A stretch of 20,000 nucleotides of DNA from Pelagomonas calceolata (taxonomy: Eukaryota): the NCBI GenBank assembly GCA_918797485.1, contig CAKKNE010000002.1:6120474-6140473 (forward strand). The letters run 5' to 3'. The notes below the pieces were generated by a model that was given only the letters and a program-made list of their open reading frames with translations, ran no database searches and was not told the origin of the DNA. The first letter of the stretch is position 1. Every line of letters begins with the position of its first letter. The position numbers and the translations under genes were made by a program. Positions 3,901 to 20,000 of this stretch are shown here, one piece after another.

Positions 3901-5078
3901 TCACTCGCGACAAAGGGAGCTTGTCCTGCAGGGCGCGGACGGCGCGCGAGACCTTCGTCGAGGCCTCCTCGTTGGACGCGTCAAAGTTCTTGGCGCCTGT
4001 GCGTCGCAATACGTCTAAGCCACGACTACGGGCGACGAGAAGTGTAAAGCTATTTCAAAACACAGCTTCGCTACGGTGCGCCTCGTCGAAGATGACGCAG
4101 CCGTCGAAGCTGGGGCCGCCGCACCACGCGACCAGTTGGTCGAGGCGCGACTGCTTCTTCGTCGTGGCGGCCGAGACCAACGTCGCGTAGGTCGCGAAGA
4201 GGACCGCGTTCTTGAGCGTCGGCCCGCCAAAGGCCTTCTTTTGTAACGCGTCGAGGCCGCGGCAGCCGTCGAGGACGGGAATGTGGCACGACACCGCCTG
4301 GAGGTCCCGCTCCGCGTCCACCCGCAAATCGGTGCCGACCGAGAACCAGAGGTGCCGGCCGCGGCCGCGCGCGACGCCGTCCAGGATGCACCCGGCGAGC
4401 TGGCGGCCCTTGCCGACGCCCGCGCCTGCGTGCGAATCGATCGATCATGCCATCTGCGCTCCGTGGAAAATGAATGCGATTCGCGCGCTGGCCCGCGCCG
4501 TCGCCCAGGAAGAATCCCGCGCGGACGCCGTTCGCGACGACGGCGTGGCGCCGCGCCGCGCGCAGCGCGCCCTCGAGCTGCAGCGCCGACAGCGCGCCCG
4601 AGTTCGCGCAGGCCTCGAGCGCCGCGCCCGGGTCGACGTCGACGAGGGAGGGCGCGGCGACCGACGCCAACAGCACGGACTCGCTGATCTCGCCCGGGTG
4701 CACGCGGGCGTTTGCTAGACTTGCCGGCAGCGGCGGCGCCGCGTAGGCGGCGAAGACCTCGGCCTCGATCGCCTCGTCGACGGCGTCCGCGTCGTCCTCC
4801 TTGGGCTGCGGCGCGGCGCCGGACGCCGGAGCTGCGTGCGCGGCGCCGGCCGCGGGCGCGGCGCGCGGCGGCGGCGGCGCCGACGACGAGGCCTTCGAGT
4901 CGTCGTCGCCGAACTTGAGCATGCGGTACAAGGCGACCTCGGCCTGCTGCGCGTTGAGGCCCTCCGCCTTCTTTTGGACGTAGAATTGGCAGCAGCCCGA
5001 GATTAGCGACGCGTCGGGGCGCTTAACGCTCGCGCGCTCGAGGGCGCGCAGCGCGGCTGCTCTGGACTCAGCACTCAT
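936..5078 (-). CDS. Strawberry notch (SBNO)-family SF2 helicase-like protein with C-terminal RanBP2-type zinc finger; 4 exons (5078-4499, 4425-4075, 3996-3616, 3556-936)
   Basis: The spliced product restores SBNO motifs LSALQLEG, GFFLGDGAGVGKGRQ, FDEAHRAKN, YASATG, YAERLGLWG, FWGAQLRFF, GLQSTGE, AEMTGR, IISDAASTGVSLHA, ELAWSADKCIQQLGRTHRS and KRLASLGALT. The C-terminus reads WTCSKCT...CAACG. Intron lengths of 73, 78 and 59 nt match the frame shifts between the ORF-track pieces. Confidence 0.93.
3557..3615 (-). other. Spliceosomal intron (GT-AG, 59 nt) in SBNO gene
   Basis: TGG CGC G|GTGCCG...GCGCAG|GC CTC joins WWRG-LRRAL and corrects the frame. Confidence 0.8.
3997..4074 (-). other. Spliceosomal intron (GT-AG, 78 nt) in SBNO gene
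   Basis: CAC C|GTAGCG...GCACAG|GC GCC AAG restores the DEAHRAKN motif; the intron contains an in-frame stop. Confidence 0.88.
4418..4498 (-). mobile_element. Introner element (MITE-like) forming a 73-nt GC-AG intron (4426-4498); element 4426-4490; 8-bp TSD at 4418-4425 and 4491-4498
   Basis: Minus strand: GAC G|GCGCGGGC CAGCGCGCGAATCG...CGATTCGCACGCAG|GCGCGGGC GTC. There is a perfect 8-bp direct repeat and 14-bp terminal inverted repeats with 2 mismatches. Removal restores GDGAGVGKGRQ. Confidence 0.88.
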
Positions 5079-6565: not shown

Positions 6566-8167
6566 ATGAAGCTCGCCCTCCTCGCCCTCGCGGCCACGAC
6601 GGCGCACGCCGCCTGCCCGAACTCGTGCAGCGGCCACGGCACGTGCGGCGCCGACGACACGTGCACGTGCTACCAGGACTGGGTCATGGGCGACCAGGAC
6701 GGCGGCGACTGCTCGGACCGCCGCTGCCCCTACCAGGTCGCCTGGTCGGCCGGCCCCGACAAGACGGGCAACATCCACACGTACGCCGAGTGCGCCGGCG
6801 TCGGCATCTGCGACCGCGGCTCGGGTGACTGCGAGTGCTTCGAGGGCTACACGGGCCGCGGCTGCGGCCTCCAGACCTGCCCGAACGACTGCTCGGGCCA
6901 CGGCGAGTGCGTCTACGCCGAGGACGTGACCTTCGGCACCGTCTACGGCGACTACAACGTAGACGCACCGTCTGGGGGCCTCGGCGTCGGCGCCGTCAAG
7001 ATCCCCCAAAAGCCCAACTGGGACTCGGGCAAGGTGCGCATGTGCGTCTGCGATCCGGGCTACACGGACATCGACTGCTCGCGCCGCATGTGCCCCAAGG
7101 GCAACGACGTCATGGACGAGCGTTTGGACCTGGTCACGGCGCTCAAGTACCACAGGCAGTATTTGGTTCTCATTGGCGCCGGTGCGCTCGGCGACGGCGT
7201 CGCGTACGACGACGCGGGTGCCGAGTGCCAAACGTCGCAGATCAAGTTCCAATCTACCCAACCCACTTCCGACGCGTGCTTCGCCGACCTCGTCGGCCGC
7301 TCCTTCGCCCTCACGTTCACGTCCCAGCTCAACCAGTCCTACACGACGAGGCCCATCGTCATCGCGAAGATCAGCGACCAGACCGGCAGCACCGACACCG
7401 AGAAGCGGGACGCCGCCCAAACGGCGACGGCCGCGGCCGTGAAGGACGCTTTGCGCGAGCTCCCCAACTACGTCATCGATGACTGCGAAGTGGACTGCTG
7501 GTACGAGGATACCTCGGGCGTCGGCGCACACTACCCGTCCGTGAAGTGCGAGGTCGAGTTCACCGGGTCGTCCGTCGCGGGCCCCCAGTACCTCCTGGAG
7601 GTCGAGGCCGACAAGTGCGACTCCGGCTGCACGCCCCAGCTGTCGAACCCGGTCCGGCTCAAGTCCGCCCTGAGGCCCTCGACGGAGGGCAACCCCACGT
7701 GCCCATACCCACCCTATGAATGTGGGACTGCCTTCTGGGGCAAGAGCGGGACGTATGGTATTGTGGGCACAGCGGGGATTGATGATAGTGCTACGACGCT
7801 TCCCGTAACGGATGGTGCTGATATTGGTGTAGATGCAACCGGTCTTGACAAATACATCATGGTCGGCAGCGAGGTCATGCAACTTACCGCCATCGCGGGT
7901 ACGTCTCTGACTGTAGTGCGCGGCCACGATGGAACGACTGCTGCGGCTCACGCCGGTGGAGATATAGTATACCTCTTATCCGGCACGACCAAGGGTTCTC
8001 AAGGTCCGCACCCGGACGTCCTCTCGCACGTCGCTGAGGAGGAGGCTGCCGACTACAACTCGTTCGAGTGCGGCCGCCGCGGCAAGTGCGACTACTCGTC
8101 CGGCGAGTGCGAGTGCTTCGAGGGCTACATGGGCGACCGCTGCCAGACCCAGACGGCGCTCATCTGA
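6566..8167 (+). CDS. Secreted EGF/tenascin-repeat protein of the stramenopile tubular mastigoneme (Sig1/Ocm-like) family
   Basis: Signal peptide [15 protein letters not shown], then EGF-like repeats [48 protein letters not shown] and [23 protein letters not shown] long spacer precedes the C-terminal [23 protein letters not shown]...QTALI. The architecture is recognised from memory as mastigoneme-type. Confidence 0.82.
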
Positions 8168-8292
8168 GCCGTCCCTCCCCGTCCCCCCCCCGGCCGGTCG
8201 CGTCGACTTTCGTTCGGTCAAGTTGAGCGTTTCCGCGAATACATATTTCCAAGTCCTAATACTAGTAGGCATCTTTCCTTAAAGTTAGACCT

Positions 8293-8409
8293 GCTGCTTC
8301 CCAAACGCCGCCAAAATACCCGTATATTTCACTATCAAATATTAATAAACAGAAATCGCCAGCCGAGCCGCCATCAGCTGATGAGGGGCGACGTCGCCGC
8401 GAAGACCGC
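8293..8409 (-). repeat. Inverted copy of 18571-18688 (last codons and 3' UTR of the TPR-glycosyltransferase gene)
   Basis: Hand alignment to the reverse complement of 18571-18688 shows about 10 substitutions and 2 small indels over ~117 bp. Shared blocks include AAATATTAATAAACAGAAATC and AGCCGCCATCAGCTGATGAG. Confidence 0.92.
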
Positions 8410-8431
8410 AGGAGCTTATCCGTCTGATTTA

Positions 8432-8899
8432 CTAGAAGCAACAAACGCGCACGCCGACCGAGCAGCCGTCCGGCGGATGGCCGGGGGCCATGCACGCGCA
8501 GAGGCGATTATTGAAGGTCTCCCAGTCCTCGTCGTGCTCATGCCAGTGGAACGTGTTGGTGCCCGACGTTCGCCGGTACTCGCGGCCGCAGAGAGGTTGA
8601 GGGAAACAGCATTGAAAGTCACGCACGTACGCGTCTTCGTCAACAGCCCGGAGCGTCGCGCACCAAGGGAAAACCATCAACGCCCACCCGCACCAGACCC
8701 CTCTGAGAGAATGGGCCGAGATGCGACCTTCGAAGTGTGTCTGGCCGTGCCATTGTCCCCGCTCCATCGGTATTGGCACGACCGGCGTGAATTGCTCCGC
8801 CGCCGCGGACGCTTGCAGCCTGAGGAATAACGACGGCTTCCTGCATCTCATGTCCGACGACATAACCCTGCACGATCTTTTCCCCTTCGTACACCTCCA
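8432..8899 (-). CDS. Small Cys-rich protein of unknown function; 5' end uncertain, possibly frameshifted or a pseudogene
   Basis: ORF 8432-8863 has a protein-like C-terminal half (MERGQWHG...GVWCGWALMVFPWC...RRTSGTNTFHW...CACM...VRVCCF). A plausible N-terminus (MEVYEGEKIVQGYVVG..., ATG ~8899) lies in a different frame, with no obvious intron joining them. Confidence 0.4.
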   Translation of the reverse strand, partial: WRCTKGKRSCRVMSSDMRCRKPSLFLRLQASAAAEQFTPVVPIPMERGQWHGQTHFEGRISAHSLRGVWCGWALMVFPWCATLRAVDEDAYVRDFQCCFPQPLCGREYRRTSGTNTFHWHEHDEDWETFNNRLCACMAPGHPPDGCSVGVRVCCF

Positions 8900-9135
8900 T
8901 CTCTATTGCGGCGGGTGGTGTCTGGGCTGCTGCCAAAAGGGGCAGCTTATTTACACAAAATGTGCAAGACTCTGCTGTTTTTGCGCAGGTCACGATCTCT
9001 TTGGCACCATACCGATTGGCCACGGCCGCCTGCCGGTGAAATCGGCGCCGCGCGCCTCCTCGTGTTAGTTCCAGGCTCCTGGTGCTCTGGATGCTCTCCC
9101 CCCCTAATTTTACCCCCCCCTGCGTCCACAGAGCC

Positions 9136-9148
9136 AAAAAACAAAAAA
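9136..9148 (-). terminator. RNA polymerase III terminator (two T6 tracts) downstream of the tRNA gene
   Basis: Minus strand TTTTTTGTTTTTT begins ~17 nt after the discriminator base. Confidence 0.75.
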
Positions 9149-9165
9149 GAAGGGTCTGATTACCG

Positions 9166-9301
9166 TGCTCAATACCGGGAGGTCGCCGAATTTGATCGGG
9201 CTCGAACCGGTGACCTCAGGCAAGCTTCCTTCATGGAGAAGGGCATAAGACCTGCACTCTGACCAAATACCCGGACAAGGAGTCCTCTGAGTTAATCGAG
9301 C
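9166..9301 (-). tRNA. trnI-UAU: tRNA-Ile(UAU) interrupted by three introns: 9267-9286 (15/16), 9223-9243 (37/38), 9180-9200 (59/60)
   Basis: Removing 20+21+21 nt gives a 74-nt cloverleaf GCTCGATTAACTCAGTTGGTCAGAGTGCAGGTCTTATGTGCCTGAGGTCACCGGTTCGAGCCCGGTATTGAGCA. Stems: acceptor GCTCGAT/ATTGAGC, D ACTC/GAGT, anticodon CAGGT/GCCTG, T ACCGG/CCGGT. It has T-loop TTCGAGC, anticodon TAT and discriminator A, with oligo-T downstream. Confidence 0.92.
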
Positions 9302-9435
9302 AATAATCAGCGGCCGGCGCACACGCGTGTAGGAGTGCTGCCAGACCTGCTTTTTCGGCGTTTTTGTGAGATAGGTAGGAACGCAAAAGAAAACCCGGTG
9401 GCCCGTAAATCAGTCCGAGGCTGCCACAAAACACC

Positions 9436-16901: not shown

Positions 16902-18609
16902 ATGGGCAGCCGTGCGGCCCTCGCCACACTTGTGGCATTGGTCCTAGCAACAACCAAAGCGGACGAGGCGTCAAGCGCCGCCGCGCGCGCCGCGTTAGCA
17001 CGCAGAAAAGGTCTCGAATTGTACGCGCCGCAGCATCAGATCGAAATGGTCCCGGGAACCGCTCCTGTACCCGGGACGAACGAGACGGCGCGGCTTCTCG
17101 AGGCGAAAGCGTGGTTCGAGAAAGCGGTGGAAGCGGACCCGAGCGACGCCACGAACCACGCATACCTGGGCAACGCCTGCGTGCGCTTGGACGACTTGGA
17201 AGGCGCCGAGCGCGCGTACGCGCGCGCGCTCGAGCGCGACCCCACGAACGCGCGCGTCCTCTCGAACTGGGGCAGCGCGTACGCCAAAATAGGCAACTAC
17301 GGCCGTGCGGTGGAGCTCTTTGATCAAGCTGTCAAGCTGACGCCGGAGGATGGCACCCTTGCAAAGAACCGGGACTCGGCCGACATGTTTCTGCGGGTGG
17401 AGCAGATGGCCGCCGTCGTGCGAGGTCACGGTGACGTGGAGGACCCCTGGGATTTCGCGGGCTTTCTCGCGGGTATCGCTTGTGTGGAAATCAAGTTTCA
17501 AATTCCCCCGTGCCAACCTGCGAAACATAGGCACCAACTACAGCGAGCGAGGCGAGGTCGCGTTCAAGATGGTCGTCGAGACGTACCCGGACCTGCACGA
17601 GAGCGCGCTCGCCCACTTGCGCGCCGCGACCGCCGCGCGCCCGCTCGGTGCCGCTCACGCCCATGTGCTGGCCAACACGCTGGTCGCCGCGCACATGGCC
17701 CGGCACCCGGAGCGGATCCGCCGCGGCGCCGCGGCGCCCCTGCTCGACGAAGCAACGGCGGTGCTCAACGCGACGTTGAACAATGCGCGCGGCCTGAGCG
17801 TCGAGGCCCGGCGGCTGCGGCCCGGCGGCGGCGCGCTTCGCGTCGTCTGCGTGGCGTCGAGCGAGCGAGCCGAGCTGACGCGGCTCCGCGCCTCCGTGAA
17901 ACGACTTGGCGCCGAGCTGACCGTACTGGGTCTCGGCCAGCCCTGGCGGGGTCTGGGCAGCAAGGTCGCGCTGCTCGCGGCGCACCTCGATGCGAGCGGT
18001 GTCGCCGCCGACGACTTGATTCTCTTCCTCGACGCCTACGACGTGCTGCTGCTGCCCGCCGCCGCGCAGTTGCGCAAGCGATTTACAGCGCTCGAGCGGG
18101 AAAAGCAGGGCGCCGTCGTCTTTAACTCCGAGGTGAACTGCGCGCCGGACCCGTCTATGCGTCTCCTGTACGGCCGCCCGGCCGACGGCGCGCCGTTCCG
18201 CTTCCTGAATTCGGGTATTTATCTCGGCCGCGCGCGAGACGTACGCTCCATGCTGGCGGTGGTCGCTGCTGATGTCGAAGCGCACCACGCGTCGTTAGGC
18301 GCCGACCCGTACCGCTTCGACGACCAGCGGTGGTTCAATCGCTTCGCCATCGCATTTCCAGAACGCGTCCACCTGGATGCTCGTGCGAGCTTCTTCCACA
18401 CGCTGCAAGACATGGACGCGTCCGACTTTGATATCGTCGACGGCGACCTTGTTTCGAGAATCTCCGAAGCAGCGCCGATGGCGGTCCACGGCAACGGCAA
18501 CGGCATTACCGCTTTCCACGACCTCTCGCGGCGCCTGGCCGCGGACCTCGGCTGGCCCGACTCCTCCGACGCGGTCTTCGCGGCGACGACGTCACCGCTC
18601 ATCAGCTGA
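16902..18609 (+). CDS. Secreted TPR-repeat protein fused to a PLOD/LH3-type glycosyltransferase domain; intron 17473-17530
   Basis: Signal peptide and about 3 TPRs (FEKAVEADP, AYLGNAC..YARALERDP, NWGSAY..FDQAVKLTP). The GT domain has VLGLGQPW, LFLDAYDV, VVFNSEVNCAPD, FLNSGIYLG, DDQRWF and VHGNG. Confidence 0.87.
17473..17530 (+). other. Spliceosomal intron (GT-AG, 58 nt)
   Basis: GCG G|GTATCG...ACATAG|GC ACC joins ORFs 16755 and 17350 in frame. Confidence 0.8.
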
Positions 18610-18688
18610 TGGCGGCTAGGCTGGTGATTTCTGTTTATTAATATTTTATAGTGAAATACGGACATTTTGGCGGGGTTTGGGGCGCAGC
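18571..18688 (+). repeat. Right arm of the inverted duplication with 8293-8409
   Basis: See 8293-8409. This arm ends where the subtelomeric satellite begins. Confidence 0.92.
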
Positions 18689-18689
18689 C

Positions 18690-19752
18690 TTGGGGCCCGA
18701 AGGGCCCTGGGGCTGGGTGTTGGACACAGGGTTAGGGTTCGGGCCCGGAGGGCCCGAAGGGCCCGAAGGGCCCTTCCAGCACCTTGGGCTGGATGTTAGT
18801 GTTCTGTGTCAGGATTGAGGTTGTGAATAGTCTTTCGTGAGGTTATGGGCAGTCTTTGGTGGCCGGTGCTGGCCACAGGGTTAGGGTTCGGGCCCGGAGG
18901 GCCCGAAGGGCCCGAAGGGCCCTTCCAGCCCATTGGGCTGGATTTTAGTGTTCTGTGTCAGGATTGAGGTTGTGAATAGTCTTTCGTGAGGTTATGGGCA
19001 GTCTTTGGTGGCCGGTGCTGGCCACAGGGTTAGGGTTCGGGCCCGGAGGGCCCGCCGGCTCGAAGGGCCCTTCCAGCCCATTGGGCTGGATGTTAGTGTT
19101 CTGTGTCAGGATTAAGGTTGTGAATAGTGTTTCGTGAGGTTGTGGGCAGTCTTTGGTGGCCGGTGCTGGCCACAAGGTTAGGGTTCGGGCCTTGGGCCCG
19201 GAGGGCCCGAAGGGCCCGAAGGGCCCTTCCAGCCCATTGGGCTGGATTTTAGTGTTCTGTGTCAGGATTGAGGTTGTGAATAGTCTTTCGTGAGGTTATG
19301 GGCAGTCTTTGGTGGCCGGTGCTGGCCACAGGGTTAGGGTTCGGGCCCGGAGGGCCCGAAGGGCTCGAAGGGCCCTTCCAGCCCATTGGGCTGGATGTTA
19401 GTGTTCTGTGTCAGGATTAAGGTTGTGAATAGTGTTTCGTGAGGTTGTGGGCAGTCTTTGGTGGCCGGTGCTGGCCACAAGGTTAGGGTTCGGGCCTTGG
19501 GCCCGGAGGGCCCGAAGGGCCCGAAGGGCCCTTCCAGCCCCTTGGGCTGGATGTTAGTGATATATGTCAGAATTGAGGCGCTGGTAGTGTTCGGTGGGGT
19601 TGTGGGTAGTCTTTAGTGGCTGGTGCGGGACATAGGGTTAGGGTTCAGGCCAGCTCCCCGGGCAGGGCCCGAAGGGCCCTGGCTTCGGGCCCTGGGGCTG
19701 GATGTTAGTGTTCTGTGTCAGGATTGAGGTTGTGGGCAGTCTTTGGTGGCAG
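18690..19752 (+). repeat. Telomere-associated tandem repeat, ~148-156 bp unit, ~7 copies
   Basis: Unit starts (GGCCACAGGGTTAGGGTTCGGGCC and variants) are at about 18722, 18871, 19020, 19168, 19324, 19473 and 19628. Each unit carries an embedded GGTTAGGGTT and GGGCCCGAAGGGCCC-type elements. Confidence 0.95.
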
Positions 19753-19758
19753 CAGCGC

Positions 19759-20000
19759 GGGTTAGGGTTGGGTTAGGGTTGGGTTAGGGTTGGGTTAGGG
19801 TTGGGTTAGGGTTGGGTTAGGGTTGGGTTAGGGTTTGGGTTAGGGTTAGGGTTAGGGTTAGGGTTAGGGTTAGGGTTAGGGTTAGGGTTAGGGTTAGGGT
19901 TAGGGTTAGGGTTAGGGTTAGGGTTAGGGTTAGGGTTAGGGTTAGGGTTAGGGTTAGGGTTAGGGTTAGGGTTAGGGTTAGGGTTAGGGTTAGGGTTAGG
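19759..20000 (+). repeat. Telomere: (TTAGGG TTGGG)6 variant zone, then pure (TTAGGG)n from 19840
   Basis: Read directly; the G-rich strand runs 5'->3' towards the end of the window. Confidence 0.99.

Follow-up and report, generated by a model that had tools for sequence, protein, structure and literature searches.

The closest described counterpart of the gene reported here is the red-algal (Cyanidioschyzon merolae) tRNA-Ile(UAU) gene, which is described as containing three introns, at positions 12/13, 37/38 and 53/54 (PMC9602550, Figure 7 legend), the third being assigned to the T-loop in the 2013 text. The D or T intron of this gene is reported to be removed first and the 37/38 intron last, and C. 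merolae provides an RT-PCR precedent for the splicing of loop introns (PMC3728597). In the same account, the A and B boxes in C. merolae are interrupted, TATA-like elements lie upstream, and the box-binding homologs of TFIIIC are missing. Nuclear tRNAs of Chondrus crispus have D-loop (20/21) and T-loop (58/59) introns, whose splicing was verified by RT-PCR (bioRxiv 10.1101/2021.12.21.473619); two heterokont genomes were likewise annotated in that study, which mentions no introns of this kind for them. [quoted passage not shown] The archaeal intron positions listed in PMC4090602 include 59/60, and the same review states that eukaryotic tRNA genes with an insertion in the D or T arm are generally read as pseudogenes.

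The model presented in PMC8450103 restricts eukaryotic genes to one intron. According to the proposal of a 2023 review (PMC10485636), the splicing endonuclease of many eukaryotes other than animals and fungi is archaeal-like, with two subunits, and might excise introns at non-canonical positions. The review predicts such introns where the enzyme is built of two subunit types, and it points out that eukaryotic tRNA scans ignore them. The accessible part of a 2026 review (PMC13578239) lists ectopic introns for red algae and a red-derived nucleomorph only and names no stramenopile; that of PMC3978253 mentions atypical tRNA introns for red algae and has nothing on stramenopiles. The preliminary description of the DNA studied here knew of no stramenopile case, and our literature search, with most subscription journals outside its scope, likewise found no report of ectopic nuclear tRNA introns in this group. 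As for precedents, that description named the multi-intron tRNAs of C. merolae and missed the three-intron gene for the very same isoacceptor, C. crispus and the Guillardia nucleomorph.

The locus comes from the stramenopile Pelagomonas calceolata, and we consider it very probable that it is a transcribed nuclear tRNA-Ile(UAU) gene with three inserts, all likely cut by a tRNA splicing endonuclease that reads the local BHB shape. The stretch of DNA analyzed, hereafter the window, comprises 20,000 nt of contig CAKKNE010000002.1 (assembly GCA_918797485.1, positions 6,120,474 to 6,140,473). It is GC-rich eukaryotic DNA, with a TTAGGG telomere at one end, into which runs a 149-bp subtelomeric array (18716-20000) of 6.8 copies, each with a telomere seed. 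An ARAGORN tRNA-Phe call at 18671-18757 and the weak covariance-model matches there lie on this GC-rich repeat and are probably false. Pfam matches were found in six of the seven frames scanned, five of them near or above the cut-off (e.g., strawberry notch, OST-alpha and PhyH); the PhyH gene belongs to a cluster at 59% identity that includes members from Aureococcus anophagefferens, and its diatom matches lie at ~45%, which places the host among the pelagophyte stramenopiles. The tRNA gene sits between two divergently transcribed genes. Elsewhere in the window, the protein encoded at 6566-8167 looks secreted and has teneurin-like EGF repeats at its two ends, with a segment of lower GC near 7700-8000. 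An expressed gene absent from the long-ORF list occupies ~8370-9073 on the minus strand; it starts at 9064-9073 and probably contains an intron near 8900-8990.

The gene and its visibility to scanners

The tRNA-Ile(UAU) gene lies on the minus strand, from 9301 to 9166 (136 nt), and is divided into exons of 15, 23, 22 and 14 nt by inserts of 20, 21 and 21 nt, with the anticodon TAT at 9247-9245 (Table 1). Deletion of the three inserts yields a 74-nt tRNA in which all stems are whole, with 7/7 pairs in the acceptor stem (one G-U), 4/4 in the D stem, 5/5 in the anticodon stem (one U-G) and 5/5 in the T stem, and the conserved D- and T-loop bases are kept; in the ARAGORN drawing it ends in discriminator A (A73). 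The spliced form thereby combines the cloverleaf, conserved loop bases, UAU anticodon and A73 of a tRNA-Ile(UAU). The exons are collinear, with no 3' half lying upstream of its 5' counterpart, and a permuted gene was rejected for this reason.

Table 1. Features of the tRNA-Ile(UAU) locus, in window coordinates
Feature	Coordinates	Strand	Basis
Invariant 212-nt block among the window, L126 and L131	9142..9353	.	Alignment
Candidate RNA polymerase III terminator made of two T6 runs	9136..9148	-	Sequence; two fragments pass them
Trailer arm of perfect 7-bp inverted repeat	9156..9162	-	Sequence, predicted fold
Exon 4, positions 60-73	9166..9179	-	ARAGORN, deletion scan
Intron 3, T-loop 59/60, 21 nt	9180..9200	-	Shuffle p 0.0009, deletion scan; kept in all covering reads
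Putative B-box motif, its last three bases being the start of intron 3	9198..9208	-	Unspliced DNA; sole match in window
Exon 3, positions 38-59	9201..9222	-	ARAGORN, covariance model
Intron 2, canonical 37/38, 21 nt, relaxed motif	9223..9243	-	ARAGORN intron call; kept in all covering reads
Exon 2, positions 16-37 including 20a	9244..9266	-	ARAGORN, profile
Intron 1, D-loop 15/16, 20 nt, full hBHBh'	9267..9286	-	Shuffle p 0.00026; missing from one X23 read pair
Putative A-box-like motif, its last three bases being the start of intron 1	9284..9294	-	Unspliced DNA; 2 matches in whole window
Exon 1, positions 1-15	9287..9301	-	ARAGORN, profile; spanned by spliced read pair

Neither ARAGORN nor Rfam reported the gene in the raw, unspliced DNA, and a covariance model run on that DNA found the middle of the gene alone (28.2 bits, top of 49 rows). 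When all eight splice states were presented, ARAGORN at its default score called tRNA-Ile(tat) in two, the fully spliced form and that in which the 37/38 insert alone is kept, both of which lack the D and T inserts. A blind profile, trained on 59 distinct viral Ile(UAU) genes that have no intron and themselves score 80-127 bits, gave the gene 83.0 bits versus -24.7 bits for the best of 150 random pieces; it placed the D and anticodon inserts at coordinates identical to those of the parse and demanded a third insert of 21 nt. This third insert it set at 9191-9171 rather than 9200-9180, because the profile takes no account of pairing. A pairing scan over 1306 single deletions in the 3' part returned 14 top rows, all of length 21 and with 12/12 stem pairs, of which six retain the T-loop motif. 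Five of these six (59/60 to 63/64) yield one identical product owing to a CCCG direct repeat, intron 3 opening with the same four bases as exon 4, and among these equivalent junctions BHB geometry selects 59/60. The parse into three inserts and a 74-nt cloverleaf given by the preliminary description is thus confirmed.

The motifs at 9284-9294 (11 nt) and 9198-9208 match the A-box and B-box consensus and are putative promoter elements. Their arrangement suggests ordinary internal promoter use by polymerase III, with the intron starts keeping the boxes whole; no TATA-like motif occurs in the 99 nt upstream of the gene. The trailer arm of the inverted repeat pairs with the leader at 9310-9304 and in the predicted fold would lengthen the acceptor stem. 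Neither arm varies in L126 or L131, two metagenomic copies of the locus that are described below. No variation is seen among the three copies in the 52 nt upstream of the tRNA (9302-9353) either; this stretch, which includes a 10-bp palindrome, may serve as a long leader or belong to the neighboring plus-strand gene's promoter.

Bulge-helix-bulge geometry of the inserts

The inserts were compared with the BHB rule, in which a 4-bp central helix is flanked by two 3-nt bulges, each cut after its second base, and were scored by the central helix plus the intron hairpin against 200,000 intron shuffles. The D intron has a complete central helix (4/4 pairs) and a 4-pair hairpin, and the T intron has 3/4 central pairs, with a U-C mismatch, and likewise a 4-pair hairpin (for shuffle p values see Table 1). 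When nine cut registers were tried, the tRNA-derived one alone gave both helices for the D (4+4) and the T (3+4) inserts. Both introns therefore show BHB structure in precisely the register that restores the loops, which bears out the earlier proposal that the rule predicts the 15/16 and 59/60 junctions; the helices and bulges named in that proposal are all present in the sequence. The anticodon intron fits the strict register loosely (shuffle p 0.028), with a C32:G pair, a 3-bp central helix and a 5-bp hairpin. It is better described as a relaxed intron of the canonical eukaryotic type, since it lies one base 3' of the anticodon and its base -3 pairs with C32. An origin of the D and T introns as decayed copies of the arms they interrupt was considered and dropped, 197/3000 and 248/3000 constrained shuffles, respectively, scoring as high (not significant).

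The central helix of the D motif occupies positions 10-13, so that the D stem is barred until the D intron has been removed. The preliminary description had this motif competing with both the D and the acceptor stems. The exclusion of the D stem stands, whereas competition with the acceptor stem need not occur: the motif is predicted at -6.4 kcal/mol without its outer helix, which would draw on acceptor-stem bases, versus -8.0 kcal/mol with it, so that the D stem alone is unavoidably blocked. ViennaRNA does not favor the motifs, placing the cloverleaf with all BHB motifs at -39.2 versus -45.7 kcal/mol for the best fold and giving the T central helix a probability of 0.01 or less in every state tested. 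It also misfolds the mature cloverleaf, for which reason we regard it as a weak judge of BHB motifs and give these values little weight. Equilibrium folding gave no prediction of the order of splicing.

Transcripts of the locus

Transcription was followed in four poly(A) runs from one sample (X21-X24), of which 6-12% of the reads were used, mapped at 85% likeness, with strand judged from the library orientation on the flanking plus-strand gene. The 12 reads that fall on the tRNA-Ile(UAU) gene all come from the tRNA strand. Run X23 mapped nine reads, seven of which extend over the ends, so that two reads supply all 250 covered bases in 9153-9322. Across this interval, the binned depth drops to 1.41 and 0.24 in two bins and then returns to 2. 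No pair of ungapped reads fits this profile; the sole identical-mate, one-gap solution is a fragment of 9165-9309 with a gap at 9267-9286, which is exactly the D intron. The gapped pair, as read from the binned depth, represents one molecule, from which the D intron is gone, in which the 37/38 and 59/60 inserts are retained, and which continues into 8 nt of the locus's own leader. The mapping tool printed no joint because it requires three reads. The expected likeness of the gapped read (125/145) agrees with the under-90 class of X23, two of whose three reads the pair explains.

A single molecule thus shows precise removal of a D-loop intron in RNA, which supports the preliminary description's claim of real splicing at a non-canonical site and suggests that this alga likely removes tRNA introns by RNA shape, as do archaea and red algae. 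It is quite improbable that the pair instead stems from another genomic copy in which the D insert is missing, or from a reverse transcriptase skipping the intron hairpin: although only one molecule is concerned, its gap equals both predicted cut sites to the base and it extends into the leader of this very locus, and the junction has no direct repeat that might favor a jump of the enzyme.

The remaining ten reads on the gene are ungapped and unspliced, and the T and anticodon inserts are retained in all covering reads. The search for spliced RNA that the preliminary description proposed hence produced one D-spliced intermediate, with neither T or anticodon intron removal nor a mature product seen in these poly(A) reads; the 85% cut-off conceals molecules lacking two or three introns, which makes their absence uninformative. 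Modeled as proper pairs, the six X21 reads (three pairs) admit two solutions, both of which include a fragment of 9165-9340 and one whose RNA 5' end at 9266 would, if the reads pair properly, coincide with the 3' cut site of the D intron. The X22 fragment reaches 9357 or 9358, and the X24 fragment spans 9125-9290. Of the six fragments, two stop at 9165, a single base beyond the discriminator, which is compatible with 3' trimming or CCA. Some fragments begin 39-56 nt upstream of the gene and two run beyond the T runs; such starts and passage are atypical for polymerase III and may reflect polymerase II read-through.

These extensions, up to 56 nt upstream and beyond the T runs in poly(A) libraries, would accord with removal of the inserts by another route, for example by the spliceosome acting on polymerase II read-through from the neighboring divergent promoter. 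We judge this the least likely of the alternatives, and very improbable in absolute terms, since on the transcribed strand none of the inserts has GT at its start or AG at its end, the inserts are 20-21 nt long, and the observed gap obeys BHB geometry. Spliceosomal introns were accordingly rejected, the insert ends being neither GT..AG nor AT..AC.

[quoted passage not shown] The D and T introns, each of which blocks the L-shaped fold, are proposed for this reason to leave first, by two cuts after the second bulge base and subsequent ligation. The RNA would then refold into the L shape, lose the 37/38 intron last and, after CCA addition, serve as a tRNA for AUA, a rare codon. The ordered splicing envisaged in the preliminary description fits both the D-spliced molecule and the red-algal precedent, in which non-canonical introns are reported to go first and the 37/38 intron last (PMC3728597). 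Demand for this tRNA appears low, AUA accounting for 2/78 Ile codons in seven reading-frame stretches.

Conservation and comparison with known systems

A scan of marine metagenomes for the gene found six loci, four of which were ordinary genes and were dropped. The other two, L126 and L131, are syntenic copies, ~94.5% identical to the window over the surrounding 1.8-2.0 kb. Among the three copies, none of the 136 positions of the tRNA-Ile(UAU) gene varies, versus 13/66 and 23/134 positions (36/200 in total) in the adjacent non-coding flanks, and the invariant block of Table 1 is the longest such run within the ~1.6 kb alignment. Elsewhere in the alignment, 356/1275 windows of 62 nt and 55/1127 windows of 136 nt are also invariant, so that conservation counts as moderate evidence. 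The comparison for compensatory changes suggested earlier met with two orthologs without a substitution in 136 nt, and hence with no compensatory changes in the BHB helices. In L131, positions 4710-4863 match window 18433-18588, the end of a PLOD-type glycosyltransferase gene, at 83% but are located where the window has 8183-8409, which suggests a small rearrangement or a captured gene fragment between strains.

In viral contigs, the five matches to the first search pattern proved to be ordinary genes whose upstream motif was fortuitous; the stricter patterns for D and T introns had 0, 0 and 1 chance match; and a D-loop insert occurred in 0/92 distinct viral contexts (from 120 of ~140 loci). 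The pattern for the D-intron form of Ile(UAU) matched nothing in the collection of prokaryote genomes. Of the 120 viral loci, 101 were called as Ile(tat) by ARAGORN, and several of the 19 that it left uncalled have short inserts; many of the tRNA-Ile(UAU) genes in these loci (L006-L125) carry anticodon-loop inserts of ~9-63 nt.

Another possibility is that the locus is a partly processed dead end or a young pseudogene, in which the D insert is cut, the weaker T motif stays uncut and another tRNA reads AUA. The mismatch and very low predicted probability of the T central helix, the predominance of unspliced reads and the rarity of AUA would all accord with this, as would the customary assignment of D/T-arm insertions in eukaryotic tRNA genes to that class (PMC4090602). 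However, every stem and conserved base is intact, exons and introns are invariant where the flanks drift, and the T motif reaches its low shuffle p value in the very register that restores the loop. We therefore regard a dead end as unlikely, even if it is the strongest of the alternatives, and conclude that the tRNA-Ile(UAU) gene is real and probably functional.

More broadly, we favor, with distinctly less assurance than the reading of the gene itself, the view that a tRNA splicing endonuclease guided by RNA shape arose independently in pelagophytes, and that these algae have further, hidden tRNA genes with D- and T-loop introns. If so, the gene would be the first such case in a host nucleus outside red algae, its intron gain having been filtered to spare the internal polymerase III boxes, and the eukaryotic enzyme proposed to be archaeal-like and made of two subunits would gain a marine model, the tRNA sets of these marine algae being by implication under-annotated. 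A stramenopile nuclear gene with a D-spliced intermediate would carry the ectopic-intron trait into another supergroup and make the two-subunit proposal of PMC10485636, as worded there, testable in stramenopiles.

The mechanism is a known one; what is new is the lineage and the intron positions. With the multi-intron tRNAs of archaea (Thermoproteales, which have (alpha-beta)2 endonucleases), the pelagophyte gene shares the hBHBh' geometry; unlike them, it sits amid eukaryotic nuclear genes near a TTAGGG telomere. It likewise differs from the Guillardia theta genes in that it belongs to a host nucleus rather than a red-algal-derived nucleomorph. As in C. crispus, where the loop introns are missed by scanners or their genes called pseudogenes, it escapes standard detection, but the red alga has at most two introns per gene, and at other positions. 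In C. merolae, a red alga and not a stramenopile, the box motifs are interrupted, whereas both are intact in the pelagophyte DNA, which has no TATA-like motif upstream. The introns of the two Ile(UAU) genes lie at 12/13, 37/38 and 53/54 in C. merolae versus 15/16, 37/38 and 59/60 in P. calceolata, and this difference indicates that those of the pelagophyte were probably gained independently of the red-algal ones. That the same isoacceptor has three introns, at differing positions, in two algae so distant from each other suggests that gain has recurred in a tRNA of low demand.
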